DNA of 64,000 nucleotides from Vermamoeba vermiformis (taxonomy: Eukaryota): the NCBI GenBank assembly GCA_045837725.1, contig JBEWZL010000260.1:62001-126000 (forward strand). Reading direction: 5' to 3'. The position numbers were made by a program, and so were the translations under genes. This document shows, in pieces, positions 18,038 through 63,706 of this stretch. Every line of letters begins with the position of its first letter. The first letter of the stretch is position 1. The notes under the pieces are model-generated. The model ran no database searches, was not told where the DNA came from, and saw nothing but the letters and a program-made list of their open reading frames with translations.

Positions 18038-19017
18038 TTAAATGAGTTTGTGGAACTGATTGTAGGCGCTGTCCAAATCAAACAACATTTGTCGTTCTTG
18101 CTCTTCATTCAGCTGATCGCTTGCCTTCATCCGGCTCAAAATTCCTAACCTGTACTTAACAAGTTAACGGTCTATTGCTGGGTTAACTCTATGATGACTG
18201 CTTACCAGTATTGTACTTTTGTCTTGCCTTCAAAGTTTGGCGGTAGCGTGGTCACTCGGGTCAGTGCGTCGTTCAGATCCAACAGCAAGGGTTGCAGCTG
18301 ATCCACAGCAACCATCTTTAACTTTAGCGAGTCCATAAGAGTAATAAAGTGTTGTACCTATTGACAAGTAACCGCGTTAGGATAGAAGACAAAGTCGGTC
18401 TTTACACGTCGTGACACGTACCGCTTCTGCGATAGCTTTTGGAATTTCAGGCACGATTGGAACGCTCGGGGCACCAACTTCGACGAGTCTGTAGTATGCC
18501 GCTGGGCAGTTGAGCTATTGAATAAGGAATTAGCTTGTTATGACTTAAGTCCCTTTGATGTTGAACGAGAGACTCTCGTTCACTGCTTTGTAAGCAGATC
18601 TTTAAGTACTAACCCTATATTCTTGTAAGAACTGTCCTACATCAGGCACATCATCCTTAATCAAGCTTTTCAAAGTCTTGTAATGATTACAAAGCTTGGT
18701 GCAAGTGGCACTGTACCTAAACGACACGTGTTGGTCAGGTACTTGTGAGGTGTACAAATAAACTGTAAATTGAACTTACTCTTCGAATGGCATTGCTTCA
18801 CGTAGCTGAGCCTTCTCTAATGCTTCAGTAGTCTTGAATATCGCATATAGCTCCGCCAAATTGTCGTAGAACTCTTTCTCTTTGGCACTGCCGGTAGTGT
18901 ATAGACTTATTTCTTTTGTCGGCCCTTTATATCAAATTAATTATACCTATTTATTCGCCAGATATACAGTATCACGCGCTTACGTGTCACTTCAGTTTGT
19001 TGAAAGTAATTGGGCAT
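18038..19017 (-). CDS. VPS28: ESCRT-I subunit Vps28 (multi-exon; start uncertain)
   Basis: Spliced translation EKEFYDNLAELYAIFKTTEALEKA..YSATCTKLCNHYK..HFITLMDSLKLKMVAVDQLQPLL..QMLFDLDSAYNQFHKLI. Not shown in the ORF track because the exons are short. Confidence 0.88.
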
Positions 19018-41365: not shown

Positions 41366-41379
41366 CCAAATCTTGTATA

Positions 41380-43397
41380 ATATTAAATGAGTTTATTTCA
41401 CCTTGGCTTCCAGCATAAGAAATTAATATCTGTGTAAGTAACCTGATGAACACACTGGTATTTTACTATTGTGTGCCAAACCTTTCTTCCAGGAGCTGGG
41501 CAACACCATCTTGGTAGACAATATTAAGAACTTTGAGCCTAGCTGGTGAAGTTGATTCAATATAAGAACGCATTTCTGAGCAGGCAGTGGATGATAATAC
41601 ATGCTGCTCAATTGGTTAGATACAAGAGAAGTGTGTCAAGCATACCCACTGGAAATGCATAACCTTTTGCAAATTGTTTCACTGCCAATACCATAAGTAC
41701 AACAGAGAAGTCTTTCTCCTGAGAAAATGGTTTGATGGAAGTTGGTTTTCAGGAATGATTTTTCTTTCTGCTTTTAGTCTTAACATCTGCATTTCTGTTA
41801 GTTATACTTCATAGGTATTTAACCATACCAAGCTTGCTACATCATTCCCCTCTGGTAGATCAGAGTGCATGAATTGGCCTTGAAGCAATTCTTGCAGCTG
41901 ATGAATTTCATCCAAAAATATTGCCCGAATTCCCACTTTTTGGGCAAACTCCACATGCCTGCTGCAAAATGTATTAAATGTGTCACGTTTGTTGGCCAAA
42001 TGAAGATTCTTTTTGAACACTTTAACCAACAATTGTTGGCCACCATTTGATATGAAGTGCAAATAAGCTTTTTGCTTGTGAGTATCATCTTCAAAGACAC
42101 TGTTCACTAATAAAAAGAAATTAATTTGGAGCTTACTACTACTACTTGCTTATTACCTTGGTTGTAGAACCTCTCTGCAAGATCAAGTGCTGCCAAAGAG
42201 ACTAGCATCATTATTCTTGTGGCATGTTCCAGCAATTTTAATTCTTGATCATAACACCATTTGTTTGGAGGAGTTGTAAGGTGTTTGGCAAGAAGTTCTG
42301 AGATAGCATCATGTGCAGCATCAAATAATTGCTTGTGACCTTCTTCAACATTGTGTAACACTATGCCCCCACAGTTGCGTGCATAGGAATGCATGAAGGG
42401 AGTTTTTCCTGCACCACTCACTGAGAAGTGTCAGCAGCATGCCCAAGGAGCAAAACAACACTTACGTTGCACAATCCAGAACAGTTTGTGCATAAGTTGT
42501 CTCGCCACTGACATTTGTATTGCATCAGTCAAAGCATTAAACAAATTGGGCTGCTGCTGATACAAGTCGTCAAAGTAAAAAGTGTCCCATTTTGAAGTCC
42601 TGGTGGGCTGTGAGCTTGGGCTTGTCCCCAAAGGCAGGGATTTGATTTTCAAGTGGTGAATGTTTTCTTGCCGCCACGTAGAATATTCCTCTAATTGCTG
42701 CAAATAGACCAGGCTTGCTTCAATATCCGCCTTGATCTCATCTTCGGTTGTCACTTGCATGTCAGAAAATTCATAATTAGTTACACCAAGTAATGAGTTT
42801 TTTGTGTAATAAGCCAACCTTGATAATTAATTAAAGTAGCCCTCATCTTATCGCTGCTTATTTTTGGCAGATAGCTTAAAAACGCTTCAGGATCAGCCAC
42901 TAAGAATTTTCCATTCAACTGTGGATTCGTTTGAACTGTTTGGATGGCCTTTTCACTGTAGCCTTTTGTTTGCATCCATTTGGCTAAGTCCGTGTTCGAG
43001 CACTCTTTCACTACAACATCCGCGTAATCAGCAACAGATAGGAAGATCTGATCCAGTTACTTACATGGCTTAGCTTGTACGATATAATTTTCCAGCTTTC
43101 TGTTCGCTACAAAGCCAGTTTAGCAATTATTATTGTTGATGTTGCCTACCTTGGTAAAGAGATTTTGTGGTTAAATAATTTCGCAAATTTGCGCCGTATG
43201 ACCTAACAAAATTAGAACTACGACCAAATTAATTTCGTAGAATACAATTGAATTTGTTGGAGTTTCTTTGCTCCTCGGGCCACATTATTACGATTTTTCT
43301 GGTTAGTAAAAATAAATATTCGCTGACTGGTGATTGCCGAAGCGGATTTGCACTTTGTTCTGTGCTGAACGCATGCTAAAGTTCGTAACAAAAACAT
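41380..43397 (-). pseudogene. Decayed presequence-like leader + SAM-like + P-loop NTPase gene (Crinkler/RHS-like), copy 1
   Basis: Spliced Walker A IVQLSGAGKT and Walker B AIFLDEIH. Collinear homology with the 58.6-61.0 kb gene. 1-bp deletion near 41697, stop at 41466-41468, 3' end lost. CpG-depleted. Confidence 0.75.
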
Positions 43398-43511
43398 GTA
43401 GCATAATTTGCAAGCGTGGTATTGAGGTGCGGACGGGAAGTAAACAGGTTGAAAAGTGAACTGAACTCAGTTTTTCTATTCAGAGTACTAAACAGCAACT
43501 CTTCCTCGTCC

Positions 43512-45748
43512 ATGAATTTTTATATTGGAGTTGACGTTGGTACCACTTCTGCACGAGCAGGATTGTTCAATAAAGAAGGAAGATTGATCTGCTCGACATC
43601 CCACGCTATTGCCGTTTACAAGCCTCAAACAGATTATTATGAGCATTCCTCGAATGATATTTGGCAGGTAAATTGTACTGATAGCTTAAATTCGTTTCAT
43701 TAGTTCAGGTAGCAATTTAAAAAATTAATTTCTAAACAGCGCTCGTTATAAAATAAAAAATAACTTAAAATTATTTCAAAGGCCGTTGTATATTGTATCA
43801 AAAAAATATTAGAGGACTCAAAAGTCGTTCCAGAAACGGTCAAAGGCATTGGATTCGATGCAACTTGCTCCTTGTAGGTATTTATGCACCTCTTTCTCCT
43901 TGTTGCTAATACAATTAATAGAGTAGTGCTTGGCGCTAATGATCAGCCGATCAGCGTCAGCCCAACGAACGATCCCGACCAGAACGTAATTGTGAGTTAA
44001 TGATCACGCAATCTTTTGGGCTAATCATAATAAATTAGGTATGGATGGATCATAGAGCTATCAAACAAGCAGAGTTTATTAATAGCACAAAGCACGAAGG
44101 TACGGGCCTGATCCAGTCGCAAAAACATAGTTACCGACTTAAATTACAGTATTGAAATATATCGGCAATGTAATATCACCCGAAATGGAGACGCCTAAAT
44201 TATTATGGTTGAAGCAACACAAACCTGACGCGTGGACCAACGCCACTAAATTTTTGGATCTTGTTGACTTCCTCACTTACACGGCGACAGGTACGACAAT
44301 AATTAGAATTACTCGTATTTAACAATACTATTAGGTTGTGATACCCGGTCTCTATGTACAGTAGTATGCAAATGGACTTTTCAAGAACATAGACGGCCGA
44401 CAAGTGGAGCTAGATCCGATGACACGTACGGGTGGGACGATTCGTACTTCAAACAAATAGGATTGAACGACTTAGTCGAGGAGAACTATAAAAGAATAGG
44501 CACATCAGTTGGCATGATGGGTCAGGCTATCGGCAACGGACTGACGGCTAAAGCGGCGCAAGAATTTGGTTTGAAAGAAGGCACCGCTGTGTCCGTTGGA
44601 ATTATAGATGCGCATGCGGGAGGCATTGGATTGTTAGGCACTTCAATTAGCGGCGAAAAAGTTGATTTGAAGATGCTCGAGCGACGATTGGCTTTCATTG
44701 CAGGTACGAGATCTACGGTGCAACTTACTACAGATCTCACAATTATTTTTGTTTAGGCACTTCAGCGTGTCATATGGCATGCAGTATTGAACCGAAGTTC
44801 ATTAACGGCATTTGGGGCCCGTATTTGCAAGCGATGATTCCAAACGCATGGCTGACGGAAGGTGGTCAAAGTGCTGTTGGCTCGTTGATTGATCACATTA
44901 TAGACACGTACGTCTGCATTTGTGTAAGGTCTCTTATTAATTAGTGTATAGGCACTCTGAAGGCAAGGCTCTTCGAGACCAAGCTAAGCACGACAATCGT
45001 TCAGTGTTCGATATTTTGAACAGACAACTGGCGCACTTGGCCGAGCAAAAATCAACTTCAGTGCCACTGCTGACGTCACACCTACACGTGTTGCCTTATT
45101 GGCACGGAAATAGAAGCCCGAGGTATAATATTTTATAAGACTATTACTCTAGTTTGGTATTAACGGAGTTCACAGAGCGGATCCAACATTGCAAGGAATG
45201 ATTAGCGGTTTGACCCTAGGCGACACATTAGCCGTTATTTATTTAGCTACATTACAAGCAATTGCATTAGGAACGCGTCATATTATCAGCGAAATGAACA
45301 AGGTACGTGGAATTTTCACGCATAATTCGAGTTAGCTGATCGTAGATCCGTGTTTAGCAAGGATACAATATCGACACGATATTTATGACCGGTGGATTTG
45401 CAAAAAATACATTATTTGTAGAAGAGCTAGCCAGCATTACGAAGTGTCGTGTAATTTTAGCGCAAGAAAGTGATGCGGTATTGCTCGGATCTGCTATCCT
45501 TGGAGCCGTTGCATCAAAAGAATACAATAGTATACTAAGTGCTATGAGCACTATGAACAAAGTCGGAAAGATATTCGAACCGTCAACAGATCCTCAAGTG
45601 CTTTCATTTTACGACGCAAAGTAAGTCAGATCTGCTCTCAAACGATTAATGACGTAAAAAAACTGATTATATTTGTAGATTTCGAGTATTTTTAAAGATG
45701 TACGAACATCAAATGGAGTATCGAGCGTTAATGAATCAATCTCAATAA
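43512..45748 (+). CDS. FGGY-family carbohydrate kinase (ribulokinase-like)
   Basis: [73 protein letters not shown]. Confidence 0.93.
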
Positions 45749-45891
45749 AATAATGTCTGCAGATCAGCTACAGTGCCAGCATAAGCAACGAAACCTAGAA
45801 TCTTCTTCTTCTTTTTTTTTACGTATTCTAAATCAGAGCTCATTGGCAGAATAAGTTAATTCGATTTTATTTACAAAAATACACTTTTCTT

Positions 45892-47522
45892 TCAGTTTCC
45901 ACCGCCACTGGCAGCATATCCTTCATTTTCTTCGTACATTCGATACGTCACGTACGGAAGTCGTAGATGCATGGCAGATTCATGAACGCGAACGAACGGC
46001 ACACTGACGCCGTAGAAGTGTTTGAGCAAGTGCACAATGTTGCCGAGTGTCAGCAGCACTGTCAGCGAGAAGAACACAACTGCGACGAAGAGCGCGAAGA
46101 CGGTGAGTTGCGTGATGGATGTCAACAAGAACAGTGACACGGGGGTCTGACTGATCACGTGCATGCATTCTGATTCAAACACAAGTTCGTTCGGCACAGC
46201 AGAGTAATCAGTAATGTTAGGTGTGAGTCGCTTGACGTTGATTGACAGTGGGACGGCGCTCTCGAAGAGTTCTGTCAAGAGCTCCACTTTGACACGTTGT
46301 GACATCCACGTGTCAATTTGATGAACGAGGCCAGTAGCGTTGACGTTTTCCAACATCAAATCGGCGCTACTTTCTTCGCTTACATGGTTCATTTCCTCTT
46401 GGATTGGCTCGTTCACTGCCGTAGTTACGATTTCATCGTCGGTCTCATATTCTTCGTTAACTTGGTCTTCGATATCTTCAGCAATGTCTTCGCCCTTAAT
46501 GATCGGCATGAACTGTGAGCAGGTGATCTTTGCGTTAAATCTAGTGTAAGGGAACTGCTCTTCGAAGCTTTGCAAGAATTCAGTTCGTTGGTGCATTAGA
46601 GACGTTATGCCATTCTGCACAGCTCGTGAAATTTCTTCAAAATCTACAGAAACATCTGCAATGTCGGGCAGCAGCACAGTAGTGTTGACTGATAGCACGC
46701 ATCGATGTCCATAGCGCACACTTGTCACGAGACCACGTGATGAGTGTTGCGTGACACGAGGGTTGACATGGACATCTCGTGCACTCACTGAGAACAGATC
46801 AAAGTTCAACGCGAAGTTTCGAGTCGTGAGCTCCAATGCCACGTGATTTTCACCAACGGCATCGGGGACTAACTCCGAGACAAATGACCACAGACCTGGC
46901 AATGCTCCAGGATGACTACTGACATCATCAATCCCGAACCACTCGTACAGCTTCGATTCATCAACGACATGCACGTAGAATGATGGTAATGATATGTGTC
47001 CAGGTGGTGGCTGTGGTATTTCTTTCAGCACCGCTTGGAGGCGTAGATCTGGAAGTGTGACACGTTCTGCAAGATCGGCACTAAGAGCGCTTACAGCGTT
47101 CAAATAATCAATCGAATTCTTCGTTGACGCATTGTTTTTGAATATTCTAAGCATAGTTTATGAGTTTCATGCGTGTTAAATGAATAAAAATTCGAACCTA
47201 CATTTTGCGAGTGCCGTTAAAAATATCATTGTTGTGCAGTTGAGCTAACAACGTCATATTCGATAATACTTGAGGTCCTATTATTAAATAAGGATATCAG
47301 TAATTTTTTTATTGGTTTTGGAAGCTTGAAATTTGCGTTTTGTACGGAGGATCTTGATCTGCACGTACCAAAGCTCGGCATTCCCACTGAATATTGAGAC
47401 AAAAGTACTTGTTGACCGACACGCACGTTATCATGATCGTATAAATAAAAGGTTTCGGTTGGCCTCGGATCTTGCTTGCATAATTGAACTGACGGGAAGA
47501 TTATGTCTGAAATTGATGCCAT
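45892..47522 (-). CDS. Putative MACPF/CDC-like domain protein with C-terminal transmembrane helix
   Basis: Three exons (introns about 47146-47201 and 47278-47367). Motifs LVTSVRYGHRCVLSV and ESAVPLSINVKRL. Hydrophobic FALFVAVVFFSLTVLLTLG near the C-terminus. Confidence 0.5.
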
Positions 47523-48050
47523 TAATAAAAATAAATATATACGAAGTTATATTAAATATGTAGATTTATCTATAGGAGCAGTTAATGAAAAGATCCAAAT
47601 TGAACGATCACTTACATTCCGGTTGGCAAAAACAAAATGACAATAGCAAGCAGCACACAACACCATATAATGTGTTGCTCTTCGTCATTTTTGAGCTGCT
47701 GAAAGATTTTCCCACGCAAAATCGGTTTTATGCAAATTGTTCGAAATTTCAAGTCAAAAAAACGTTTTTGCCTTCGAGTGAGTTTTGTAGACCAGCACCT
47801 TTACCTCACCACAATTGTAAATACAAAAAATCGCCTATTGTAAATATTAGGTAAGCGGAAAATTGGTGGGTAGGGAGATGATTAAAAAACTGGACCCGTA
47901 TTGCTTAAATTCATTCAAAGTGTCGAACTTATTACAAAATTATTGATAATTGATGGCACTACTATCCAAAATAGTATAACTAATTTAGGGAATTATTTCA
48001 GAAAATTTTTCATCAAATCCGCTCCGTGGCTAACTTAGCTTGCATTTAGG

Positions 48051-50043
48051 ATGGAAAAGAATAACAAGACGAAAATTATTGTAATTGGTGCTGGTATTGC
48101 AGGTCTTAGCTGCGCTTCAACCTTGATCCAAAATAACAAATTCGATGTCACGGTGCTAGAAGCTAGAAATGTGCGCTCAGCTATTTATTTAAATAGCAAT
48201 TATTAACTAATTATTTATAGCGTTTAGGAGGTCGAATTGATACCAAGCAATTTGGTCCTGTAAGTCTTTCACAACAATTATTTGAAATTCGAATAAATTG
48301 GATCAGAACGAAGCAATCAAGACCTGAATAACACATGCATATTATAGGCTGTTGTAGATTTAGGCGCATCATGGCTGCACGGCATTTCAGATAATTTATT
48401 GTACGACAGAGGCGAAGAAATGGGCTTGAAATACAGAATGACCGCCGAAGAATGTGAAAAACTCTTGCAAGAAACAGATTTTAATAATATTAAATTTTTA
48501 CCGACACCACCGGTGATAGATTATAACGGCAAATCAATGTCGCATGTTTACACGCAGTTTTACCACGAATGGGAAGAAGTAGCGGATGAAGTTGAGGACT
48601 TTTATGAGGACAATAAGGACGAGCACGGATTGGTCAGCGATAAAATTAAAGACATGTCGGTCATGGAAAAGTACGTGCACGATAATGATACTAGATCCGG
48701 AAGTGAAGCAAGATCCGGTGTCGTCATGACGTTCATATGTTGGGTGGTTTAGTTAACTAAGTAATATTTTTGATTCAGGATGATGGAAATTGCCAAGAAA
48801 GCAGGGGTCGATGCAAAACTGAAAAAGAAATTAGGCGAAGAAATGTTTGAGCGATTAGTTCAATTTTCAGCCGCGTTTCAATCAGGTAAAAACAAATATC
48901 ACAGATCATGATGTAATTCTTAATAGCTAATTTTGCATAATCAGGTTACTACGGCGGAGAAATGACGAGTTTATCTGCAAAGTACATGGGATTTTTGCAC
49001 GAGACAGGCGGCGATATGTTGGTGCTGAATGGATATATGACCGCAATTAACTATCTTTCCAAGAATATTGATATTAAGACCAACTGTCAAGTCAGCAAAA
49101 TCATCTATAATAAGAAAGATGCCAAGAATGGAAGTCATTGTGTCACGTTAGAGACGAGTGTTGGTCGCATGACATGTGATCACGTGGTGGTGACAGTGCC
49201 ACTCGGGTGTCTCAAACACAACGCTGTCGAGTTCGAGCCTGCACTTCCTTCACGCAAACAAAAAGCTATTGAACGATTGGGCGCTGGTACGTAACAATCT
49301 TATTCTTGGTTTATAATATAATTAATATCACGATATATGGCACTAATAGTAATGATACAATAGTTATTGGAGTTTGTATTTAAGCTTGTGCAAATTTTTT
49401 AATTGTTGTGACAGGTCTACTTGACAAAGTTGTGCTGCGATTCAAAAAGAGATTTTGGGAGAAAGATTTGCGTTGGCTGCAAGTAGTCCCCGAGGGCATT
49501 GGCTTCACGAGCTTTATGAACTTTTTCAAACAAACTCTGGAGCCAATTTTGGTTGCGTTTGTGTCACCCGAGCACGGCAAAATTATGGAAACAAAACCTG
49601 ACAACGAAGTGATCGAGGAGGCTTTAGGCGTAAGAATGAGTCATGATACCGTGTTAATGTCCTAATATTTGTTATAGATATTGAAAGCCTACTACGGCAA
49701 AAAAGTTGGGGATCTGTTCGAAGAAGGATGCGTGACCAAGTGGTGGACAGATCCGTTCTCGCGAGGGTCTTATAGTTATTTGCCCGTAGGAAGCACACCA
49801 GAAGACTATACTGCAATGTCAGAGCCCGTTTGTGATGATCACGTGCTGTTCGCTGGTGAACACACAACGAGGTCAGGGCAGATCTCGAAACAAAGCAGCA
49901 AGATAATAATATACTAATCGTGTTTTTATAGGAGTCATCCGGCTACTGTAGGTGGCGCGTATTTGAGCGGTCAACGAGAAGCTAAGCGATTATTGGAGAA
50001 GTACAACAGCACGGATGCGAAGAGTGAGAAGGAAAAGAAATAA
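48051..50043 (+). CDS. Flavin-containing amine oxidase (polyamine oxidase-like), tandem copy A
   Basis: IIVIGAGIAGL, LEARNRLGGRI, DLGASWLHG, VVVTVPLGCLK, WWTDPFSRGSYS, FAGEHT..HPATVGGAYLSGQREA. Confidence 0.92.
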
Positions 50044-51336
50044 CTGCCCTGTAAACCGAAAAAAAACTGCCTAATTTATAGCGCAAAAATATGCAATCGT
50101 TGCGAGAGTTCTGGATCTTGCACGAGTACTTGTAAACAAGCATGTAAAATTTCGTTTTTGTTTGTAACGGATTCGAGAAACACTGCACACATGGCAGAAA
50201 TTACGCGCAAAATTAAAGTTGTAATTATTGGCGCCGGCATAGCAGGTTTAGGATGCGCTGAAGCGTTGAACAAACACAAAGATCTGTTTGATATTACTGT
50301 GGTCGAGGCTAGAGACGTAAGGAAAATTAAAGCATATTTTTTAAATTTAATGTGGTAATATTTAGAGGCTTGGAGGCCGCTTAGATACGCGGATGTTCGG
50401 ATCTGTAAGATCTAGTAAAATATTTGTTTAAAAATATCTAATATTAGCAAATAGACTCCAATTGATGTAGGCGCTATGTGGATGCATAGAACGGATGATA
50501 ACGCTTTATTTGACCGTGCAAACGAACTGGGACTGAAATTAGATTTTACATCCGACCAACAAAAGCGTTTTGATGAGGAAACGAACGATCACATTAAAGT
50601 ATTACCTTCTCCTCCTGTTATAGATACGCATGGTAACTGCTATGCAAAGGAAGGGAAGCTTTTCTTTGACGAATGGGACAAGCTCGTGCAAGAAGTCGAA
50701 GATCTGTATCCAAAATTAAAGGACAAAAATGGTTTGGTCGGAGATCAGGTGAAAGATATGCCAGTTATTGAAAAGTAAGCACTTCTATATTTAATTTGGA
50801 TTTTTTAGCTAGTACGACTAGATCGAACTCGAACTCGATCTTCATCTTGTTAAATTTTTTCCGACGGTTCTAAATTTTATTAACTTTAGGTTTCACGAAC
50901 TAGCTAAACAGCGTGGAGTAGATATTAAGCTTAAAAATCAACTCGGCGAATCGTTGTACCACAGACTGGTCAATTCCTCGTCAGCTAGTTTGTCGGGATA
51001 TTACGCCGGAGAATTAGAACGCTTGAGCTCAAAGTACATGGGATTTTTGAACGAAACAGGAGCTGACAAATATGTTATGAGTGGATATAGTACTGCTGTC
51101 AAGTACTTGGCACGAGATCTGGATGTGAAACTCAACACGCAAGTTCGCAAAATCATCGTTAAGAATAATGGTCCTGCGTCTAAAAATAGCAACCAATCAC
51201 ATTGCATCACGTTAGAAACGAGTGCAGGTCGCATGACATGTGATCACGTGGTGGTGACAGTGCCACTCGGGTGTCTCAAACACAACGCTGTCGAGTTCGA
51301 GCCTGCACTTCCTTCACGCAAACAAAAAGCTATTGA
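49163..51336 (+). repeat. 110-bp identical tract shared by the two amine oxidase genes (49163-49272 and 51227-51336)
   Basis: ggtcgcatgacatgtgatcacgtgg..aaaagctattga is base-identical in both copies while the flanks are diverged. Confidence 0.9.
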
Positions 51337-52187
51337 GAGACTCGGTGCTGGTACGTAACAAAAAACTTTATTCTTATTACGTAACAAAATGTTCGTTTGG
51401 ATGTGCTCAAATAATGCACGAACTCTGCAATTTACGGATCTATTTTGATTGGGTCTTTTTTGCAGTGGTTGACTAGAATTTTATTGTAGGAGTAATAGGC
51501 AAGGTGGTATTGAAGTTTCAAAGGAGGTTTTGGAACAAAGAATTCGGGTGGATCAAAGTCGTTCCGGATGCGGATCAGATCAGCTTCACTGGCATTAGAA
51601 GTTTCTACAAACATACCCTGCAGCCTATATTAATCGCATTCGTACCTCCTGCGCTATGCAAAACTCTCGAGTTGCGCGAAGACAAAGACGTAATTCATCA
51701 GGCGTTGCAAGTACGTTTAGATCCATTTAACCAAGTTATTCTTGGTTTTTAACAATAATATATATATATATATTATTAACATTTATAATAGATTCTAAGC
51801 AACTATTATGGTCCCGAAGTGCATCAGTTGTTTGAGCAAGGTTTTGTAACGAGATGGGGAGCCGATCCGTTCTCGCGTGGTGCTTACAGGTATAACTCAA
51901 TATGCATATTATTACTCTATTATTTACACGTGGCTAGTTATATCGAGGTTGGAGGCACGCCTGAGGATTACACCGCCATGGCCGAACCTTTGTTTGGAGA
52001 TCGAGTACTTTTCGCTGGTGAACACACTACGACGTAATACCGCACATTAAGATAATATATATACTTGATGCATAACAATGCATTTTATAGGAGCCATCCT
52101 GCAACTGTTGGAGGAGCGTACGCTAGTGGTGTTCGCGAAGCAGAAAGGTTAATTGAGAAGATCCGACTGTTGCATCCTAAGTTATGA
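50191..52187 (+). CDS. Flavin-containing amine oxidase (polyamine oxidase-like), tandem copy B
   Basis: Same motifs and largely the same introns as copy A. Ends ..LHPKL-stop. Confidence 0.92.
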
Positions 52188-52467
52188 AAACTGCTCCATG
52201 GTAGCAAGTATTTAGGTATTTTAGCGAAGGGCAAGTCAATTTAGTACACTCTTATTCTTAAAATTGACTACAGCGCGCTAAAATTCCGACATATCTGAAA
52301 CAACGTGCGGGAAAAGCATAAAGATCGTCGGAAATCAAAATCACTAGTGTTATATGCGTAACAAGATATCAAACTAGCCAGAAGGTCTTTATTTTGGTCA
52401 GTGAATGCTCCGACAGCTGAGACAAAATCTTGTGAATCATTCTAATTATATTCGTTCATCTGGTAGT

Positions 52468-55400
52468 TTAGATCGTGGTACTCTCAAACAACCAGTTCGA
52501 TATATCTTGCGTGAAGTATCCTCCACCTGTTGCTCCTGACAGACCGACAAAGTAAGGCACTGGATCCAACTTCAAGTACCCGACTGGCGTTGCAAAGGCA
52601 GACGTTCCATTGACTAGTACCTAAAAGTATTATTTTAGCCAACTTCAATCAATAAATTGTTAAGTCTTACTCTCAAGTAGCTAGTGAACGAGAATTCAAA
52701 ATAGTATGACTGCGGACAAGTCAATTTTGGTAACGACGAACGAACGATAAACGAGCACACGTAGCGGAAGTTATCGCTGAGCGGAGCATTCCTATGCAAT
52801 TTACGGTCAATTGTCACGCTGTACTAAACACCAAATCTGCACGTACCAATCACAGATGTAGAACTCGTTGTAAGTAGCACTGTACGCGAACATTGTCACA
52901 TTGGGCACTGAACCAACACCCAACAACCCTCCGCTCGACAAATACACTTCTGATTCTTGCGGTTGACTCTTCGAAAAGAACAACGTGAAGCTGGTTGAAG
53001 AGCTTAGTATTGCACGAACATGAGTCAAAGTTCATCTTACCCATCAGCACCGTTGTTTTCAGCATCGCAGTTCGTTGGAGTCCACGTCAACGTTGAATAG
53101 AATCCCGTGTGAGTGTAGACAGGCAAGGGATAGTACGCCACTCCTGACTCGCTGCCGCCTGTTGTCAAGCGAAGTGAGTTGCCGAGAAGTGAAGCTGTGC
53201 CGAGTGTATTGATGACCGCGTCATTGAAGTTGTAAGTGAACTGTCGCTTTTTGGGTAACAGTGTTATTGTGCTGTAAGACCATCGCGTAAATGTGCCTTC
53301 GACGCCACTGAGACCAAGGTAGTAAAGCGATGGATTAATGATCGTTTTGGCTCTGTCGTTCAGTGTGGCAAAGAGTTGATTCATGAAATATACCTGCGCA
53401 ATCATTAGCTTTCAGTTACCATGTTTAGACTCTCGTACATTAATAATGTTAGTCGAAGTGTATTCTATTTTGATGTCCATCAAGTCCAAGCAATTAGTTG
53501 ACGATAAGTATAGTGGCACAGAATAAACTTTGGCGGCGAACATCGTTGAGCTAAAAATGAGTCATTAGTAAAATTAGGATGCAAGTGCTAAGAATGTCGT
53601 ACTTGAAGTATGCAGCGAACTGACTGCTCGTGTAGTTCACTGTGAACGATGTCAGTCGTGACATCATTGACGTGCCATATCCTGCATCGTCATTGATCGA
53701 ACTGACAGTGACATCTGACGGAGGTGTTGTGGTCAAGAAGAATGTGAAGCCTGAGTCACTCGTGCAGTTGGTTGGTTTCCATTGGAACGAAGTGGTGAAG
53801 CCAAGACGAGCAGGCTGAGGTGTCTTGTACACCGCTAGACCAACACCGTTGTTTGAAATCTGAATCAAGTTGCTAACTACTGCGGCGCCACCAGCGGTAA
53901 TCAGATTGGCAACGGAAATTGCGGAGTTGACAGCAGACGGATAAGTCGTTGTTTTTGACCACTCGCTGATGTATTGTCTGACATTGGAAGTACCAGCTGA
54001 TCCAGCGAAGCCAATTGTGTAGTTATCGCTCTTGGAAAGTACCAACGTCGATGCAAACACAAACTCGTTGTTGGCGTAGACCTTGCAAACATAATTTAGT
54101 TATAAAGTAGTGGCCAGACAAGTACGTACTTCAAAGAGGTCTTGATTGTAAATCACTTCAAAAGATACAGTCTGATTTAAGCCGACAGGTGGAAGCGGAT
54201 TCGGAAAAGTTGGACAAAAGTTCTGAAACGCAGTGCTGATCACGGTAGTCCTGTGCAACGATGTTAACCCATTGCATTGATTTGTAACGAAAATATCTTG
54301 GTGGTACCATTTGCAAAGATAGAACTCGTTGCGAGCACGATTGAAGCCAATGATCGTTGTGCCTGGTCTCGATTGAATGCCAAGACCACTTCCATACGAT
54401 AAGGGCCCAGGAGGTACTTCGAGCTCACTACGAGGACTCGTCAAGAACATCGCGAAACTGTGCACGACATCAACAATAAGCCAGAATATAGTACAATGTG
54501 CTTACCCGTTGTCATCTTGTTGATCTTCGCTTCCGAGCAGTGTCCACTTGAAGTTCAGTCCAAATTGTTGGCTTAACGAGAATACATAGTCGCGAAGTAC
54601 AACGAAACCAGCGCCATTTTGAGCGGTCGTCAGCCAGATCCGTTTAGCCGTCACGTCAACTGAAGCTTGGCCCAAAGCGGAGACCCGAGTGTCGTCTGTC
54701 GTGAACTCAGTAATTTCGCTGACAGAGTCCCATTGCCAGGAGGTAAAAGCGTGGTTAGCAACTACTCCGCTGTCACTGCTAGCGCAAATTCCAACATAGC
54801 GCGCGACAGGTCTCAGCGAGCTAGGCAAGGTGTAGGAGAATCCCAGGCGACCATCAACGTACATCTGCAAACACGAGTGTTAGAACATTAGATGATACGA
54901 GCTGGTCTTACCGAAATCACGTGTTGTCGGATCTGAAGCTGATTGTTAAGTTGTACGCGACATTGCAACCCAAGCTCGTTAACCGATAAGGGAATACTTG
55001 ACAGTTGCTGCGGAAAAATGGCGGAAAGGTTATCAGGGGACTCGTAGGAATTGTTGGAGGCGGTGTGTTCCTGAAATTAAAAATGAGGAATCGAATTTTC
55101 GGAGTTGACGTCTTTCTTACCAATTGCAAACGTAAAACTCGTTCAACGAAACCACGTAACCTATAGCCAACGTATCTGGCAGGTCTTGGAACCCTCCCCG
55201 ATACAATTGAGAGGAAAGACTCGTCTCGGACAAAACGATGCTCACTCTGCCGGTGAAAGAGAGTTAGCTCTAAAAACTAGCATAATTATCAAGTATCTTA
55301 CCCATCAATGTATTTATTGTGCCTGCTATAAACATCGACCGAGGAAGTGCAGTTCGAGGAGGTCCACAGGAATGACGTGTTGAATCCGACGTGCGTAGTT

Positions 55401-55591
55401 ACCGGATCTGAGTAAACGGCCATTCCACCATACCGTATATTTATGCCATTTACAGCGGTAGCAGTCACACCGCCGCCAAAAGGCCGAATTTTGGTGTAGT
55501 TGAAACTCGATCCGCCAACGAAGAACTTCTCTGCATGTATGACGACTACCTGCAGCGACAATAGTATGAATAAGAAATGATATATATTCAT
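52468..55591 (-). CDS. Secreted protein with about four legume (L-type/ConA-like) lectin domains
   Basis: Signal peptide MNIYHFLFILLSLQVVVIHA. Repeated units LGxASL..LRLTT..GxAYY..GFxTxFxW..ADG..YxGxSGxxG..xxW. Confidence 0.8.
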
Positions 55592-56815
55592 CTTCTATTG
55601 TGGTGTTGTATTTGTATTTGAAGGGTGATTTGATGTCAAAACAAAAAGTTGATCACACCAACCTCGAGAACGTAATCACTAAGGCACGAAGTTCAATTGC
55701 ATTCGAATCCACTTATTTAACCTCCCATATTGGCGGAAGAAATCAGGGAGTCAGTCGATGTTGTCGGTGGCTGATCTAGATCAACACCTTTTTCTAGCTT
55801 ACAAATTCAATTAATACGAAATTTTGTTTCGGAATACCTTATTATCGATACGCACCTTCTATATGGCCACCAATTTTGCACCGACAATACGTAGAAACGC
55901 AGTTAAGCACCCGACAACAGATCTGCTGTCAAATCGTCACTCCTGAGCTAAAAATACTTAATATCTGCTCTCTTCTGTAAAAGGGCTCCAAAGAAATGCT
56001 CTCGCTCCTCCGCAACAAGATCTTGTAAAGGGTAGAGTAAAACTGATCCGAAACTGTCGGAAACTACTCTAATTAGTAAACTATCATCGATTATTGAAAT
56101 ACAAACGAATCTTACTTTTAGAAGGGCTAGTCATCTCCCGCAACAGATCCATTGTCAAATCTTGTCAATTTTTATAAATTGCTACGGGCAACTCTCACGT
56201 GCTAAGGATCCGATGTCAAACATATCAGCTTGAATTTGACATCTTGCTAAACTTCACATAAATATCTCGGTCATAACGTAGACAAGGACACATCTTGCGC
56301 GAAGTATCCGGCACTCCGTTAGGAGAATGGATTTAGTCAGGATCTAGCTAACCTGGTAGGCCAATTTTATTATAATATATCAAATGTTTTTACAAAAATG
56401 ACAGTATTAAACAAATTGCCGCTTAAGAATCCTTGCGCTCTAAAGATGTAAAATAAATAATTTATTGAATTAATTCGAAACCAAATATTTAAAATGTATT
56501 TTGTGCTCAATAGAACTGTATAAAAATATGCCCACGATTGCGGACGAGTAAATTTCATTTTACATTACGGACGTGTTATGTCCGATCAGATGACTTACCT
56601 AACGGCGCCAGGGTACGTGTTAGCGCATAATGCGTTCCAACGAGTTCCTCATGAAAAAATTAACAGTTGCACCAATGCGCGCCAGTAATAAACTGTAATT
56701 AATGGTAACAATCGATTTTACTTGAAATATATTGTGCACGTGTAACGGTTAATTTAAAGACGTGCAGAAACTAATTTAATATTATAAGTTTTAAAGCGCA
56801 CATTTGAAGCAATCT

Positions 56816-57215
56816 ATGGCCGATCATGTAAGTAAAAGGTAATTTCTAGAACTACGGTTGCCTAATACTCGAAATCCAGATTACTTTACACCTCCACACC
56901 GGTTTTACAGGAGGACCTCCTCAAAGACAGTTTATTGCAGACAAGCAATTAGAAATTAAGGTAAATATTACTTTGCCTTCGGTTGGTTATGGTCTTTGCG
57001 TTAATATTTAAAATTTATTTAAATTTATTTTTCTTTGCCAGATATCGCCAAACGCTACGTTGCAAGAACTGTACGAATTAATTAGAAATACCGCTCCTTG
57101 GGTTAAATTGCATTCTTGGGCAACATTTCTGAACGAACCCGTGAACAAAACTGTTGCCGAAGCAGGTCTTACGGATGGAGCCGTTGTGCAGTTGGAGAGC
57201 GGAATGAAAGACTAA
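56816..57215 (+). CDS. Small (about 80 aa) ubiquitin/UBX-like protein, 3 exons
   Basis: Spliced MADHITLHLHTGFTGGPPQRQFIADKQLEIKISPNATLQELYELIRNTAPW..NKTVAEAGLTDGAVVQLESGMKD. Canonical introns 56828-56879 and 56961-57041. Confidence 0.65.
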
Positions 57216-57311
57216 GCAACCATCAATTATTTAGTTTAATACTACTTTGTCACTACCTCTCAACATTGAGAGAATTACAAATAAAGTTAGAATAGGCTAA
57301 ATGATTTTATT

Positions 57312-57400
57312 TTAGTATCCTCCAGCGTGGCCCTGACAAACCGACAAAGTACGACACGGGATCCAGCGTGTTGAGAATGCTACGCTGTTCACTCGAGTGA
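57312..57400 (-). pseudogene. Fragment homologous to the last exon of the lectin gene
   Basis: LDPVSYFVGLSG versus LDPVPYFVGLSG at about 52515-52570, followed by a 1-bp deletion. Confidence 0.65.
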
Positions 57401-57443
57401 GTTAGAGAGGTTACAATACATATTTATATATTTAGTAATCACT

Positions 57444-58370
57444 ATACCATAAGCCAAGTTCTGATCGAAAGCGGCAATGAGACCAGCGGCGATGTAAACT
57501 GAAGCTGTTTGTGCAACGACGGAGGCGCTGTTAAGGACACCTAAAACAACGAACAACAATCAGAGCCAGAACTATCATATTTTCGATTGGTTAATAATGT
57601 ACCCATGAAGAGGCCAGCGTCTTCAGAAGCGACGAGATCAGACATCAAAGCGAATTATAGTCAGCACCGCTTGGTGATCGCCCATTGATTTGGCCTCTTT
57701 GGTTTCACCAGCAAGTTTATCAGTGTCAAACCGAGCAGAATGGTCCAAGTGCGATCGTCGTTTAAGCAACAGGGATGCTTCTCTGGTACTCACGAATGTT
57801 CTTCAGGAGGTCAATGGAAATATACGTAAGCTCCTATTCGTGGCTAGCGTAGAAGTGCAAAGGTGGCTTACCGATATCCGGATCTTTGTTCAACGATCCG
57901 CTGCCTTGAATACTTTGTCCTCGCATTTGCGCGGATCTTCGCCGTTGACATTATCACCCAAAAGAGCGCCGAATTTAACACACAGACCAATCAAAGCCAT
58001 ACCAACAGCTATTCAATAAGAAAACACGATTAATATCGCTAAAATCAATATCATTGCGAATTTTAATTACCGCAGAAGATTGTGTCGACAAAATGAACGA
58101 GCGTGGCGACCAGTGTATTTATACTAGCTAAAATATAAAAGTCATATTTAGTATTAGTGTCAATAAACGAAAAATAAGCTCGGGAATCAAACGAACCAAT
58201 TTTTAAAAATAACAAACGGAATTTAATTCACAGTTCTAGAGCTTTCATGATATCTATGATGGTACTCCAGCAGTCCCAAATTATTTGGTAATTTTCTGGA
58301 ATTACTGTTCGTCAAATAGGCACGATCTCGAAGAAGATCGGTATTTTAACTCTCACTAACGACTCTTACC
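57444..58370 (-). pseudogene. Fragmented duplicate of the SLC45/SUT transporter gene
   Basis: 57444-57654 matches 61356-61566, and about 57930-58370 matches about 62972-63402, introns included. The middle of the gene is missing and unrelated DNA is interposed. Confidence 0.9.
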
Positions 58371-58571
58371 TGGAGCAAGCCGTGACACCATCAGGCACCA
58401 ACTGGTAGTACAAAAACGTGCGTTATGTAGTGCTATCAGTCGGAAAGGAGCCTTTGAGAAACACGGCCGTTCCGCCTTTTTTAGGGAACTCCACCAGATT
58501 AAACACAATAACACAACTCGCTACTAAGCACGAATATTTTGAAGCTGCGAAATACCGCTGCTTGCTCACAA

Positions 58572-61024
58572 ATGCTTTTGGCTCGAAGAGTTTTTCGAAA
58601 TCTTGGAAGATCAGTTGTGGCCAAAATAACCTGCAAAAACAGGTATGTTGCCGTATTATTATTAAAAATGGATTAATTAATTTTGCGTAGATCGCTGTAT
58701 TCTTTGGTTTCGAAAGACAAGAAGGGATTCGTCAGCAGAAAATCGTCTGGTCTGACGCACGCCCAAAAATCTCTCTTTTCTAGCGCTATCTCGAAGGAAT
58801 TTCAGAATAATCTAGCTAATTATGTCATCGGGAACAAGAAGCGTAAGTAGCAAATTCAGTTTTATTTTAAGCTGCAAATCCGAACTGACTTTCCGCCGGC
58901 GCACAGTGCGCGAGTGTACAAACCAAGATTTAGCAAACTGGATGGAACGACAAAATGAGTATTCAAAAGCGGCTATTGACCTTGTCCGCAGCACTCCTGA
59001 GTTGAGTGGACGATTCATGTCTGAGGATTTTGACTCGTTTTTGGGTTTCTTGCCTGTGTTAACTCGAAAGAACGTGCACAGTTACTTTCAGGCTGCAGTT
59101 GAACGTAAGCAAGTACTGCTCGAGAGCACTGTTATTAATTCAAACAGGAATGCTGCTGCCATTTAGTCAAACTCTTCCTGTCATCACAGATGAAGAGATT
59201 TCTGCAAAGATTAAGTCATCTCTGCCATACATCCAGGATATGATAACTAAATCAAGTGATCTGGCATGGCAACAGAAGAATATTTGCAGTTACATTGCCA
59301 ATCCACTGCCTGTACATGTGGAACCTCCAAGTACTGAGATCAGATGGAATACATTCTTTTTTGATGACTTGCTCACACAAGATGAGCCATTCAAAAGGCT
59401 AAAGCTTGCTATTGATGATGCTAAATCGTCAAACTCACAAGATATGAAACTAATCCACATCCTGCAAAGTACATAGACAGTTGTTTGAAAAAGTAGAACT
59501 AACAATGTGACATTAGTGAGTGGGGCTGGCAAAACTCATTTTGCAATTTCATATGCCAGAAAGGGGGATGCTGGTGGTATTGTGTTACGTAATCTCGACA
59601 ATTACCACAAATCTCTATTTGATGCTGCAGAAAGGACCATTAGTCAAGCACGAAAAATGTTGACAAACAGCAATATCACTGAAGAAAAGAAGTTTTTGGA
59701 GCGCTCTAAGAGAACAATGATGCTAATTTCATTAACTGCTCTTGAATTAGCTGAAAAATTTTACAATGAAGGTACTACCCTTCATATTCTTCTAAGACTA
59801 ACATTTGAGTAGCCAAAGAAAAGTTTGCAACTAAGAAGGAACTGCATGATGCCCTTGTGCACTTCCTCTTCACTTGGGGCAGAGATCTAGTTACCAAGAT
59901 GTTTGACCGAAACCTGACATATGTTACAAATGATGCAGAATTTGAGAATTTTGCAAAAAAATATGCAAATTTTGCTAAGGACCAACAGCTTGTGATATTT
60001 CTAGATGAAATTCATTTACTTGCTTTCCAGATGGAGGGAGAATTCATTCATGAAATCCCTACTAAAGATGAAAGTATGCCAGCCCATCAAACACCAACAG
60101 CCAGACAGGTCTCCAATGATGAGTTGGTAAGATAACCTTTACATTAGCACACTTCCATTCTAAGAAAAAAAAGGGTTCTCAAGCACCACAGCCCTTAAAT
60201 ACTATCTTTAAGAGATCAACATCACTACTCTATGTTCTTGTCCTTGCTATGGAGAGCTTCTTGAAGTTGCACAGAATAACAGTGAGTAGAATACAGTACC
60301 TTCCTAGTTGACAATTAGCAGCACATAACAACTTCAACTTCATATTCTGCTATGAGATTTTTTACTGAACAGACAAGTGCACGTGGCAGATTTCGCATTC
60401 ACTACTTCTTGCATTATGAAGATGATAAGGACCGTTTAGATCGGTTCAAAGAACTTTTGTTCAAAACTTTTGGAAAGGAGAGAGTTGAGCCTCTGTTTCT
60501 CGAGTATCTCACAGAATTTCGTGCGCTTGCTTCTCGACCAGTGTATCTGTGGAATCTATTCAATATGGTAAGCAACGTTCATAAATAAGCTGTTCTAAGC
60601 TAGCTATCAAGGTCATAGCAAAAGATGTTGATACAGGATCATTTGAAAGCTTTTTCCACTTGTGGGTGGAAAGGGCAGTCAATGATGCTGAATCAAGAGC
60701 AGAATACTACTTCACCAAAGCAAAGACACAAGCATCAAATAATGCAGTAAGAGTAACAAATTCAACCAATTTTGGTGATACTGACTCTTAAAGGTAAACC
60801 GTGTTATTCGGGAAATTGCCCTTGGAGCAAATACTACTGAGTTGGAAATTGAGGATTGTGAGAAATTAATTGAGCTTGGCTTAATTGATATCAAAAATAT
60901 GTCATTTCCTCCCAAAGAGAAAACTGTGGCATTGGCAACAGACTATTACTTGCGCAGGACCATCCAAGAATCATTCCAAGCCCTCATACAGGCATGTGAT
61001 TCTGATAACAGTACGAAGACTTAA
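58572..61024 (+). CDS. Presequence-like leader + SAM-like + P-loop NTPase + winged-helix-like protein (Crinkler/RHS-like), copy 2, apparently intact
   Basis: Nine exons splice in frame: MLLARRVFRNLGRS..LRECTNQDLANWMERQ..LSGRFM..ILQMSGAGKT..VIFLDEIH..LASRP..CEKLIELGLIDIK. Body strongly CpG-depleted. Exact 3' end uncertain. Confidence 0.75.
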
Positions 61025-61166
61025 AATAATTGAACCAGATCACTAGTTGTAACCTATCATATGTAATAGCCTTGATATAAGATTGTTTTTCGATAAATGT
61101 CAGTTTTTTAGACGACTAAGGATTGTGCTTCAAAAGGTAACTTACAGCAGCAATATCAATTTATGC

Positions 61167-63706
61167 TTAGTAGTCAGATGTATTAACTGAACCTTCAGGG
61201 TCCAACAAAGGAGTACCCTCCATAGCATTTTGTTTCTTAGTGTCCAAGAAGAACACGCAAATGCAGGCTACGAACACGTCAGAATAAATCTTGGCGTATG
61301 GATCTAATTCATTCACTTTGACTTACCGGCAATCGAAGGCACAGCACCCCATGAAATACCATAAGCCAAGTTCTGATCGAAAGCGGCGATGAGACCAGCA
61401 GCGATGTAAACTGAAGCTGTTTGCGCAACGACGGAGGCGCTGTTAAGGACACCTAAAACAACGAACAACAATCAGAGCCAGAACTATCATATTAGCGATT
61501 GGCTAATAGCGTACCCATGAAGAGACCAGCGTCTTCAGAAGCGACGAGATCAGACATCAAAGCGAAAGGAATCGAGTTGAACGAGGTGTAGTTGAACGAG
61601 ACCAAAGAGGCCAAAACGATGGCAATCACCAAGCGGTGCTCGGCTGAATAAGATGTCAGTAAAGTTCTTACGTTGTATTTATCACTACAGGTCCTTGTAA
61701 GTTCCCATTTTAATCACGTGGTCAGTCTTAAATGAGAGCCGTGTCTAAGGCCATAGTGGTGTGTTGTACGTACCAGGGAACGAGTCCAAAAAGAACAAGC
61801 TAATGTAGCAACCAGTGGCCACAACTTGAGAGCTCAAGTACGCGACTTTAACACCAACGCCCTTGATAATCAAAGGCAACACGAGCGAGTACAAGAACGA
61901 AGCTGCAGCGAAGCAAGCAGAGGCGTAGAGACCCATCTTGAGACCTTCAGTTTCGTTGTCTTTGTACAAGTTGTTTTGGAAGAAAGTCGTCAAGCTGACC
62001 ATCATAGGGGCATAGGCGGCCCTAAGAACTCAATTAGAACTCTGTCATGTGTTCACTAACATAGCATCATCATCGAATGACACGTGTCAACAAAGGTATT
62101 AGACCCCACTACAGCGGCCCAACAAAGCACCAGTGACACGTGTCAAAAATTCATGTCAGGCGCACGTACCAAGAGAAGAAATACAAGGCAACAATCTTGA
62201 AGATCGGACGGTTCATGCTCTTGAAACCAATAATGATCTTCTTGAACACACCACCAATGCTTTGACGAGGAACTGTTACACGATAGATTAGACTAAATAG
62301 CTAACCTCACGCTATAATAATTGCACGTACCGCCAGCAGGTCTTCTGTATTGTTTCTCGTTCGCTGAGAACATTGTTGGGATCAAACTGAAGATGACGAA
62401 CTCGACACCCAAAACTTCATAACGCCATTAGTACGTCTCACTACTGATAGCTAGTTATACTTACTGAACAAGAAGAAGTACGGATCTTTCACGGTGATGA
62501 ACAACGCACCAATAATATTGGCAATAATGTTGGCCAGACCTAAACGTTCGATTAAGGGCTAGTTCAAATAACACTACTAAATAGGGCCAAAATATCGATA
62601 TCCAAGACGTACCCATGACAGTCGAGACCATGGCGTTACCGAGCTGCAACTTCTCTTCGGGCACAACGTCATTGACGAGCGTACGAGCAGGACCTTGCAT
62701 CACGTTGACCATCAAGTTCATCAGAGCCAAGCCAAGCATCTGTCGTTGAATAATATGAGCTAACACGTAACTAAGATTGCTGCTATTCAATCAATAATTT
62801 CGAAAATCAACCGCTTCAATTTCAAGAGCATTGCAATTTGGAGGTTGGATCCATTGCCGACCCCGCTATTTAATTGGTATGCAATTTTGATACGATCGTT
62901 TGCGCGGTAGTAAGTAATAGCAATAAGGTCAAGCGAACTTACAGCAAGGAGGATGGCCCAAGTGTGATCGTGCGGATCTTCTCCGTTAACATTATCGCCC
63001 AAAATAGCGCCAAATTTGACGCACAGACCAATTAAAGCCATACCAACAGCTATTCAATAAGAAAGCACGATTAATATCGCTAAAATCAATATCATTGCGA
63101 ATTTTAATTACCGCAGAAGATTGTGCCGAACAAAATGAACGGGCGTCTGCGACCTAATCGACCAGTGTAGCTAAAAATAGAAAATCATATTAGCTCCATC
63201 GTAATAACGAAAATAGAAAGAGAAATCAAAACCAATTTTAAAAATAAAAACGGAATTTAATTCGAGTGTCTGAATGCATTCATAGCATAATAACAGTAAT
63301 CAAATGATTCCAAAATATTGGTATATTTTTATCAATAATTACTGTTTGTTAAACACGATCGAAAGAAGATCGGTGAATTTTACCTATCACTAATGACTCC
63401 TACAATTGGCTGAACGATAAAACCTGTACTTCTATAATTAGTGCACTTCTACTTTTCGACTTTCAGACGCCTCTACGAACCGCTGATAGGGCCAGCAGTT
63501 GCCATGACAATGTTCGTCGTGGATTTGGAGAGTTTCAATGTTTTTGTGAACAATGGACCGCCTAATGCGAATTGAATACTATCTAATACAAAAAGTCAGC
63601 AACAGAATATTACGGATCGCTCGATCGGGATCTTACAAACAAACTGCACTCCGGCAAGAGCGAAAGTGACGCAAAACAGCCACAGACTATACAAAAACCC
63701 GTTCAT
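61167..63706 (-). CDS. MFS sugar transporter, SLC45/sucrose-transporter (SUT) family
   Basis: LAGVQFVYSIQFALG, AGPISGFIVQPIVGVISD, GRLGRRRPFI, NVMQGPARTLVNDVVP, NSIPFALMS, AGLFMGVLNSASVVAQ. Confidence 0.92.

Follow-up and report, generated by a model that had tools for sequence, protein, structure and literature searches.

Low CpG observed/expected ratios (o/e) together with raised TpG and CpA are the standard proxy of methylation-driven CpG loss (PMC8857923, PMC4378018). Sparse CpG methylation targeted at a few per cent of genes has been documented in protists, and it is reported as repressive on silent genes derived from transposable elements (TEs) or viruses in Acanthamoeba castellanii, Cyanophora paradoxa and Naegleria gruberi (PMC12344493). 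In A. castellanii the same source counts 381 methylated genes (2.4%), which are silent, enriched for giant-virus and TE sequences and marked over promoter and body, and for Cyanophora it describes some methylation towards the end of expressed genes (PMC12344493). Here we describe a 64,000-nt stretch of the Vermamoeba vermiformis genome (contig JBEWZL010000260.1, positions 62,001 to 126,000 of the forward strand; hereafter the window), which is gene-dense eukaryotic nuclear DNA with a G+C content of 42% and very short GT-AG introns. Two paralogous genes of an orphan NTPase family, copy 1 and copy 2, lie within it under two islands from which CpG has been lost. This depletion is real, statistically overwhelming and cleanly CpG-specific. 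Long-term heritable CpG methylation of the two gene bodies, combined with purifying selection, is the best explanation that the sequence offers and is probably correct.

Copy 2 is described by a sequence-based gene model with an assumed start codon (Table 1). Its exon 5 carries the Walker A motif SGAGKT, followed about 120 residues later by the Walker-B-like IFLDEIH in exon 6. In the exon alignments A1 and A2 the two copies do not differ in SGAGKT or IFLDE, and on these two motifs both are predicted to be P-loop, AAA+-like NTPases. While the order and spacing of the motifs resemble those of AAA+ P-loop NTPases, no Pfam family reaches its cut-off; here, as in all our family, homology and fold searches, single exons and not the spliced protein were used as queries, which makes negative results weaker than they would be with the whole protein. 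The copies share 39% amino acid identity over 396 aligned residues (57% in the P-loop exon, alignment A1; 29% in the next exon, A2; 35% in exon 3, A4). Self-comparison reveals no detectable nucleotide similarity between them, the likeness being at the protein level only, and by our own reading several intron positions and phases coincide. We considered a joint duplication of an NTPase gene and its neighbour and rejected it, as the flanking genes of the two copies are unrelated.

The segment from 59150 to 61020 in copy 2 holds exactly 19 CpG, the number at which the initial annotation had arrived, and 13 of them form positions 1 and 2 of CGN Arg codons. The remaining six comprise three NCG codons (TCG, GCG and ACG), two codon-spanning sites (CTC followed by G) and one site in intron 8. 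The same annotation put neighbouring genes at 3-4 CpG per 60 nt, which is roughly right: outside the islands the window contains 2947 CpG in 60171 nt, or about 2.9 per 60 nt, at a CpG o/e of 1.10. Measured over 59122-61090, island 2 has a CpG o/e of 0.27, with 19 CpG seen where 77 are expected at the background o/e (Poisson P = 2e-15). The predicted surplus of TpG and CpA is also present. TG+CA o/e in island 2 is 1.36, beyond all 547 background windows of 1870 nt, in which it reaches 1.34 at most and CpG o/e stays between 0.81 and 1.35.

The erosion had been presented as specific to copy 2. Its paralogue is in fact the more eroded of the two (CpG o/e 0.215), and because both paralogues are affected the target is the NTPase family rather than one gene. 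Across the window, o/e falls below 0.6 in only 8 of the 128 windows of 500 nt, all of them over copies 1 and 2, and the other 120 lie at 0.65-1.69. At 300 nt, every window with o/e below 0.45 falls in the two islands except one (at 18501, 0.43). RNA polymerase III largest subunit (RPC1), eIF5A and the xanthine-dehydrogenase-type enzyme (XDH) all retain normal CpG.

The 5′ edge of island 2 is sharp, as first described: CpG occurs at 59104 and 59121 and next only at 59427. Exons 1-3 keep their CpG (Table 1) and exon 4 drops to an o/e of 0.08. Introns 1-3 together contain 7 CpG in 155 nt (o/e 1.35), against 1 in 267 nt in introns 4-9. Beyond the stop codon, the 3′ flank (61025-61255) has 2 CpG, an o/e of 0.29, and from 61256, near the next gene, the density is normal again (o/e 1.18). 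Copy 1 shows a 5′-to-3′ gradient in CpG o/e, from 1.21 upstream through 0.67 in exon 3 and 0.49 in exon 4 to 0.08 in exon 5, with normal density restored at 41130 (o/e 1.34). Exon 3 is common to both copies yet CpG-normal in copy 2, placing the boundary inside the homologous unit.

The missing CpG reappears as its transition products. A CpG deficit of about 58 in copy 2 and about 62 in copy 1 is matched by a TG+CA surplus of 57 and 78, respectively. Among the 16 dinucleotides, CG alone is clearly low (0.27 and 0.21, against 1.02 in 15 background open reading frames (ORFs) of the window, which also serve as the codon background), with GT slightly lower; CA and TG are up in both islands, GG is higher too, and neither CC nor CT is depleted. 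The effect is equally confined in codon usage. In exons 4-10 of copy 2, pyrimidine-ending codons that precede a G have C as the last base in 2 of 84 instances, compared with 497 of 1054 (47%) in the background (P = 4e-19). Before any other base C is used in 86 of 187, compared with 960 of 1844 (P = 0.12), a share that falls inside the per-ORF background spread of 0.27-0.62. Copy 1 gives 3 of 54 before G and 74 of 139 before non-G. G-ending Lys, Glu and Gln codons account for 42.6% in copy 2 and in the background alike. Since codon usage departs from the background only before G, the NTPase genes are compositionally native except exactly at would-be CpG sites. With the tests of reciprocity, context, composition and region in agreement, the process is an in-place, regional, CpG-specific transition process.

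This native composition bears directly on a possible foreign origin, in which the genes would derive from a donor poor in CpG, whether virus, transposon or heavily methylated eukaryote, and would still lack host composition. The family lacks relatives in cellular databases, as would be expected of fast-evolving viral or mobile genes, and methylated genes are reported to be often viral in origin in several protists (PMC12344493). However, codon usage is that of the host wherever CpG is not involved, and of the nine host-type introns of 40-64 nt the six within the island are eroded and the three outside it are not. The compositional boundary runs inside the copy 2 gene, and both copies are eroded although only 39% identical. 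Host-like codons, eroded introns and a within-gene boundary contradict the donor, which the initial annotation had named among the findings that would overturn its reading, and we consider this origin highly improbable.

The homology searches point the same way, yielding neither viral nor TE relatives. Pfam searches with seven NTPase exons returned nothing below E = 0.048 (best 13.9 bits against a cut-off of 27), the sub-threshold matches of single exons including AAA_33 (E = 0.067), AAA (E = 0.12) and AAA_14 (E = 0.17). A word-based search with exons 5 and 6 gave no homologue among longer proteins. A HMMER profile of exon 5 run against 1.84 billion representatives gave three matches, none named. 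P0001 is a 95-residue fragment identical to copy 1 at 89 of 95 positions, the differences falling at 3 of 79 exon residues and 3 of 16 intron read-through residues; it is a near-identical copy 1 fragment from a relative. P0003 is an exon-like fragment of 109 residues with 35% identity, and P0002 is a low-complexity repeat. Metagenome scans with profile A3 and with P0001 found nothing. No viral relative of the family emerged from the single-exon searches or from three IMG/VR profile scans: those with A1 and A2 were empty, and A4 returned one locus (L001, 2842-4743), where 38 residues within a 633-residue ORF are 42% identical to the exon-3 domain. We rejected this locus as a relative; the stretch contains the pattern YSKAAID with which the search was seeded, the ORF lies among phage-structural-like genes, and the match is judged to be chance.

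Structure-based and specialised searches were similarly unrevealing. Profile searches of PDB gave nothing below E = 0.0095, with unrelated molecules at the top, and those of PADLOC and PHROGs nothing below E = 0.0027. In the ESM Atlas, exon 5 falls with generic P-loop clusters at 0.79-0.83 and exon 3 with unnamed clusters. A guess that exon 3 forms a SAM-like N-terminal domain was dropped, its predicted fold (four helices, pLDDT 63) having no Foldseek match in PDB at E ≤ 0.001. Scanning 46 ORFs of the window (11 + 35) revealed no TE domain and, at E ≤ 1e-3 and 1e-4, no match to the DNMT families, and neither island is surrounded by convincing terminal repeats of the inverted or the long type. 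The labels "transposon-like" and "effector" used in connection with copy 2 find no support here, TE domains, terminal repeats and named homologues all being absent from these results.

The window contains its own controls for the effect of duplication. Tandem amine-oxidase (PF01593) paralogues at 48000-49800 and 50400-52200, with at most 77% nucleotide identity over 371 nt and 95% amino acid identity in one exon, have CpG o/e of 1.14 and 1.19, and a direct duplicate pair beside copy 2 is 96% identical (Table 1). Because both pairs retain CpG, duplication alone is not the trigger of the erosion. The controls weigh on a process like repeat-induced point mutation (RIP), in which duplication-triggered C-to-T hypermutation with a CpG preference would have struck the copies while they were still similar. 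Both family members are struck and nothing else in the 64 kb, premature stops occur in copy 1, and fungal repeats, including those of some basidiomycetes, are reported to undergo hypermutation in CpG context (PMC3318451). As in fungal RIP, C-to-T change affects a duplicated family; unlike in RIP, the other duplicated pairs are spared (o/e 1.14-1.27), exons 1-3 of copy 2 are untouched despite belonging to the duplicated unit, and the frame of copy 2 survives. Its 676 codons, with 14 CGN including 4 CGA, fit slow decay under selection more readily than a burst. Nor does the organism look fungal by RPC1 (about 58% to the best named species, with Amoebozoa and early fungi mixed), although this placement is weak. 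A RIP-like origin is improbable.

Which CpG survived in copy 2 depends on what they encode. NCG makes up 3 of 125 NCN codons, against 249 of 1353 in the background, and C is followed by G across codon boundaries in 2 of 88 cases against 497 of 1457, so that synonymous-type CpG survives at 13% (NCG) and 5% (codon-spanning) of background. Among the 29 Arg codons, by comparison, CGN still accounts for 14, where the background has 181 in 244, so that 65% of its background share remains. Intron 3 divides one of these 14 codons, and four are CGA, a single transition away from TGA. If CGN codons decayed with a neutral survival of 0.05-0.13, retaining 13 of them would have P ≤ 2e-7 from 21 ancestral CGN codons or P ≤ 1e-3 from 40, both ancestral numbers being assumptions. 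Because CGN Arg codons outlast synonymous-type CpG, the counts support purifying selection on the copy 2 protein during CpG decay.

The same filter bears on direct selection against CpG in transcript or DNA, such as avoidance of a CpG sensor, or a CpG-specific mutator other than methylation. CpG-avoiding viruses likewise show depletion of CpG alone. Here, however, introns and the 3′ flank past the stop are as depleted as synonymous sites, Arg has not shifted wholesale away from CGN, and exons 1-3, which belong to the same transcript, are undepleted. We regard such an explanation as extremely improbable.

The present condition of the two genes is less clear than their past. No nonsense change interrupts the frame of copy 2. 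Copy 1, whose exon-8 homology is broken by an in-frame TAG TAA, is on this evidence predicted to be truncated or a pseudogene; by our own reading, made without a scored alignment, copy-2-like sequence goes on in frame past these stops. At four aligned positions a CGN Arg codon in one copy stands opposite a CAN His or Gln codon in the other. DNA run X1 differs from the window at least at CAA/CGA (59646) and CGC/CAC (59703), within 40 of the 104 variant rows, and these two differences are CpG-transition polymorphisms in Arg codons, though small in number. Together with the four CGN/CAN pairs they hint at CpG-to-CpA change at replacement sites. One X1 contig, covered to roughly half the depth of its surroundings (381 of 718), shows the substitutions T>G at 59176 and G>A at 59275 and lacks 1 nt at 59248, in exon 4; it represents either a second haplotype with an exon 4 frameshift or a close extra copy of copy 2. 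The proposal that the protein is still functional is uncertain: the ORF of copy 2 is intact in the window, but the exon 4 deletion in X1 and the stops in copy 1 speak against it.

RNA-seq runs X21-X23, which carry the same species label, are uninformative for this isolate because hardly any gene of the 20 kb is matched: of about 13 million records per run, 16, 23 and 24 reads fit 41100-61099, mostly in part and at 95-99% identity, none on the NTPase genes and almost none on the others. The few X21-X23 reads that fit the window pile up at 57601-57682 (95-99% identity), with an "opposite strands" joint at 57654/57682. Their loose ends are similar to the paralogue at 61.4-61.6 kb, and a related organism's copy of that gene is their probable source.

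At the splice sites, the gtacat donor (59469-59474) pointed out by the initial annotation is real, but its proposed origin from gtacgt is unsupported, the homologous intron of copy 1 beginning GTAAGT. Among ten donor-like hexamers counted on both strands of the window, GTACGT (37) ranks second; GTAAGT occurs 60 times. By direct reading, many of the 40-65-nt introns in both copies (for example 59469-59516, 59772-59812 and 41719-41828) have a yeast-like ACTAAC/CTAAC 10-20 nt upstream of the acceptor.

Taken together, a CpG-specific, reciprocal, regional and selection-filtered signature is limited to the NTPase family within the 64 kb. From the loss of CpG in introns, 3′ flank and synonymous positions while CGN was kept, we infer methylation and deamination under purifying selection; 5-methylcytosine as the cause, its heritability and its persistence today are all part of that inference. 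Two paralogous, intron-bearing gene bodies would have been heritably CpG-methylated over a long time, and spontaneous deamination of 5-methylcytosine would have turned nearly every selectively free CpG into TpG or CpA. Transitions in CGN codons (Arg to Cys, Trp, stop, His or Gln) would mostly have been removed by selection. The first 0.3-0.55 kb and the upstream region of each gene would have stayed unmethylated, at normal CpG density, and the rest of the 64 kb, including housekeeping and other duplicated genes, would never have been targeted. The methylation and deamination first proposed for copy 2 is thereby supported in part, through its expected CpG-specific, C-to-T-type, regional and selection-filtered scar.

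Several points weigh against long-term methylation under selection. The mutational scar is the sole basis for the cause, and such a scar would long outlast the methylation. In copy 1 only 5 of the 15 residual CpG lie in CGN codons. Present-day constraint is doubtful because of the TAG TAA in copy 1 and the 1-nt deletion allele of copy 2 in X1. The joint targeting of two genes without nucleotide similarity is left unexplained, and the 5′ ends are spared in genes with no viral or TE relative, whereas A. castellanii methylates silent, mostly viral or TE-derived genes across promoter and body.

The first of these points leads to a fossil footprint, in which the genes, or a single ancestor of both, were once methylated and have since lost the mark, leaving only the scar. 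Past and present methylation leave the same trace in sequence, selectively free sites are almost fully eroded (5-13% survival), which makes recent activity unnecessary, and loss of 5-methylcytosine is reported to be frequent among eukaryotes (PMC12344493). Against this, the island edges are still sharp, the introns show no regain of CpG (1 in 267 nt), and the two CGN/CAN differences between window and X1 hint at ongoing CpG change, tiny as the numbers are. A fossil is unlikely, yet it is the most serious competitor; and of the probability that we give to long-term methylation, perhaps a fifth belongs to methylation that survives as a fossil only.

Long-term methylation of the two gene bodies also allows a closer comparison with known systems. 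Like low-CpG genes of invertebrates and CpG decay in vertebrates, the islands have lost CpG by mutation with TpG and CpA raised; in those animals a large class of housekeeping genes with broad expression is hit, whereas here RPC1, eIF5A and XDH are untouched and one orphan family alone is affected. Transcription-linked gene-body methylation in animals and plants spares the 5′ end, as here, and it spares the 3′ end too. Because housekeeping genes are untouched and the erosion passes through the stop codon into the 3′ flank, the islands are not animal-type gene-body methylation. With the sparse methylation of protists they would share a small minority of targeted genes in an otherwise unmethylated genome, the CpG context (found in A. 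castellanii and C. paradoxa) and lineage-restricted targets (PMC12344493). They depart from these systems in three respects: the first 0.3-0.55 kb is spared, the target shows no connection to viruses or TEs, and both members of a paralogue pair that lacks nucleotide similarity are marked. Judged by CpG content, upstream DNA and exons 1-3 of copy 2 stand at o/e 0.7-1.45, so a promoter-spanning pattern is not seen.

The coordinates of the features are collected in Table 1. Copy 2 is flanked on both sides by a partial direct duplication of a neighbouring minus-strand gene and its upstream region (57444-58369, 61356-63403). About 1.4 kb of gene interior is missing from the upstream copy of this duplication, and both copies are CpG-normal. 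In the 211-nt pair, four of the nine mismatches are CpG/TpG or CpG/CpA.

Table 1. Positions of the NTPase genes, CpG-poor islands and neighbouring features within the 64,000-nt window
Feature	Position	Strand	Remarks
NTPase copy 2	58572-61024	+	Model: 10 exons, 9 GT-AG introns of 40-64 nt, intact 676-codon frame
Exons 1-3 of copy 2, CpG kept	58572-59104	+	Exon CpG o/e 0.71, 1.45, 1.00
CpG-poor island 2	59122-61255	+	From within intron 3 of copy 2 past the stop, with 231 nt of 3′ flank
NTPase copy 1, exons 3-8 as modelled (408 codons)	41469-43010	-	tblastx self-comparison and exon alignments
Two consecutive in-frame stops, TAG TAA, in the exon-8 homology of copy 1	41463-41468	-	Frame 0 reads EERFGTQ, stop, stop, NTSVFIRLLTQ
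CpG-poor island 1, over the body of copy 1	41131-42990	-	15 CpG; CpG o/e 0.215; TG+CA o/e 1.47
Direct duplicate pair	57444-57654 = 61356-61566		96% over 211 nt; CpG o/e 1.19, 1.27
Second duplicate piece	57931-58093 = 62972-63134		93%
Weaker extension of the duplicate	to 58369/63403		79% over 451 aligned columns
Small inverted piece	57663-57706 = 61640-61598		
RNA polymerase III largest subunit (RPC1)	553-4957		

Besides RPC1, recognisable genes of the window encode eIF5A, EF-hand proteins, a xanthine-dehydrogenase-type enzyme, the two tandem amine oxidases and a very long coiled-coil protein. For an RPC1 fragment, identity reaches 58% at most with named species (Balamuthia, other Amoebozoa and early fungi) and 67% with one metagenome protein, which places the organism in a lineage of protist grade that is poorly sampled. 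The coiled-coil gene (24004-30417, minus strand) comprises ORFs of 1310, 453 and 277 residues with weak TPR/MLP1- and CENP-F-type matches. Across its 6 kb the plus strand has an AT skew of about -0.33 to -0.37, and TA o/e falls to 0.17-0.5.

If the islands are fossils, or the NTPase genes are mobile, this case is an ordinary one. If the methylation reading holds, sequence alone would mark which genes this eukaryote methylates, and the targets would be a small, intron-rich, selection-constrained family with spared 5′ ends rather than a transposon or an endogenous virus. The fullest form of this reading, which we put forward tentatively and hold to be unlikely as it stands, is that an otherwise unmethylated, deep-branching protist keeps an orphan family of host NTPase genes, neither TE nor virus, under heritable CpG methylation of the gene bodies that leaves the promoters free, with targeting that outlasts divergence to 39% identity. 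Recognition would then not be by nucleotide homology, because targeting would have outlasted that divergence, and a sequence-independent or protein-guided route would be implied. The family would be an epigenetically switchable set of host genes, possibly related to conflict or defence. The islands thus raise the questions of whether repressive protist methylation governs ordinary host genes as well, how targets may be recognised in the absence of sequence similarity, and whether CpG-poor islands could serve as a cheap genome-wide proxy of the methylome in unsampled lineages.

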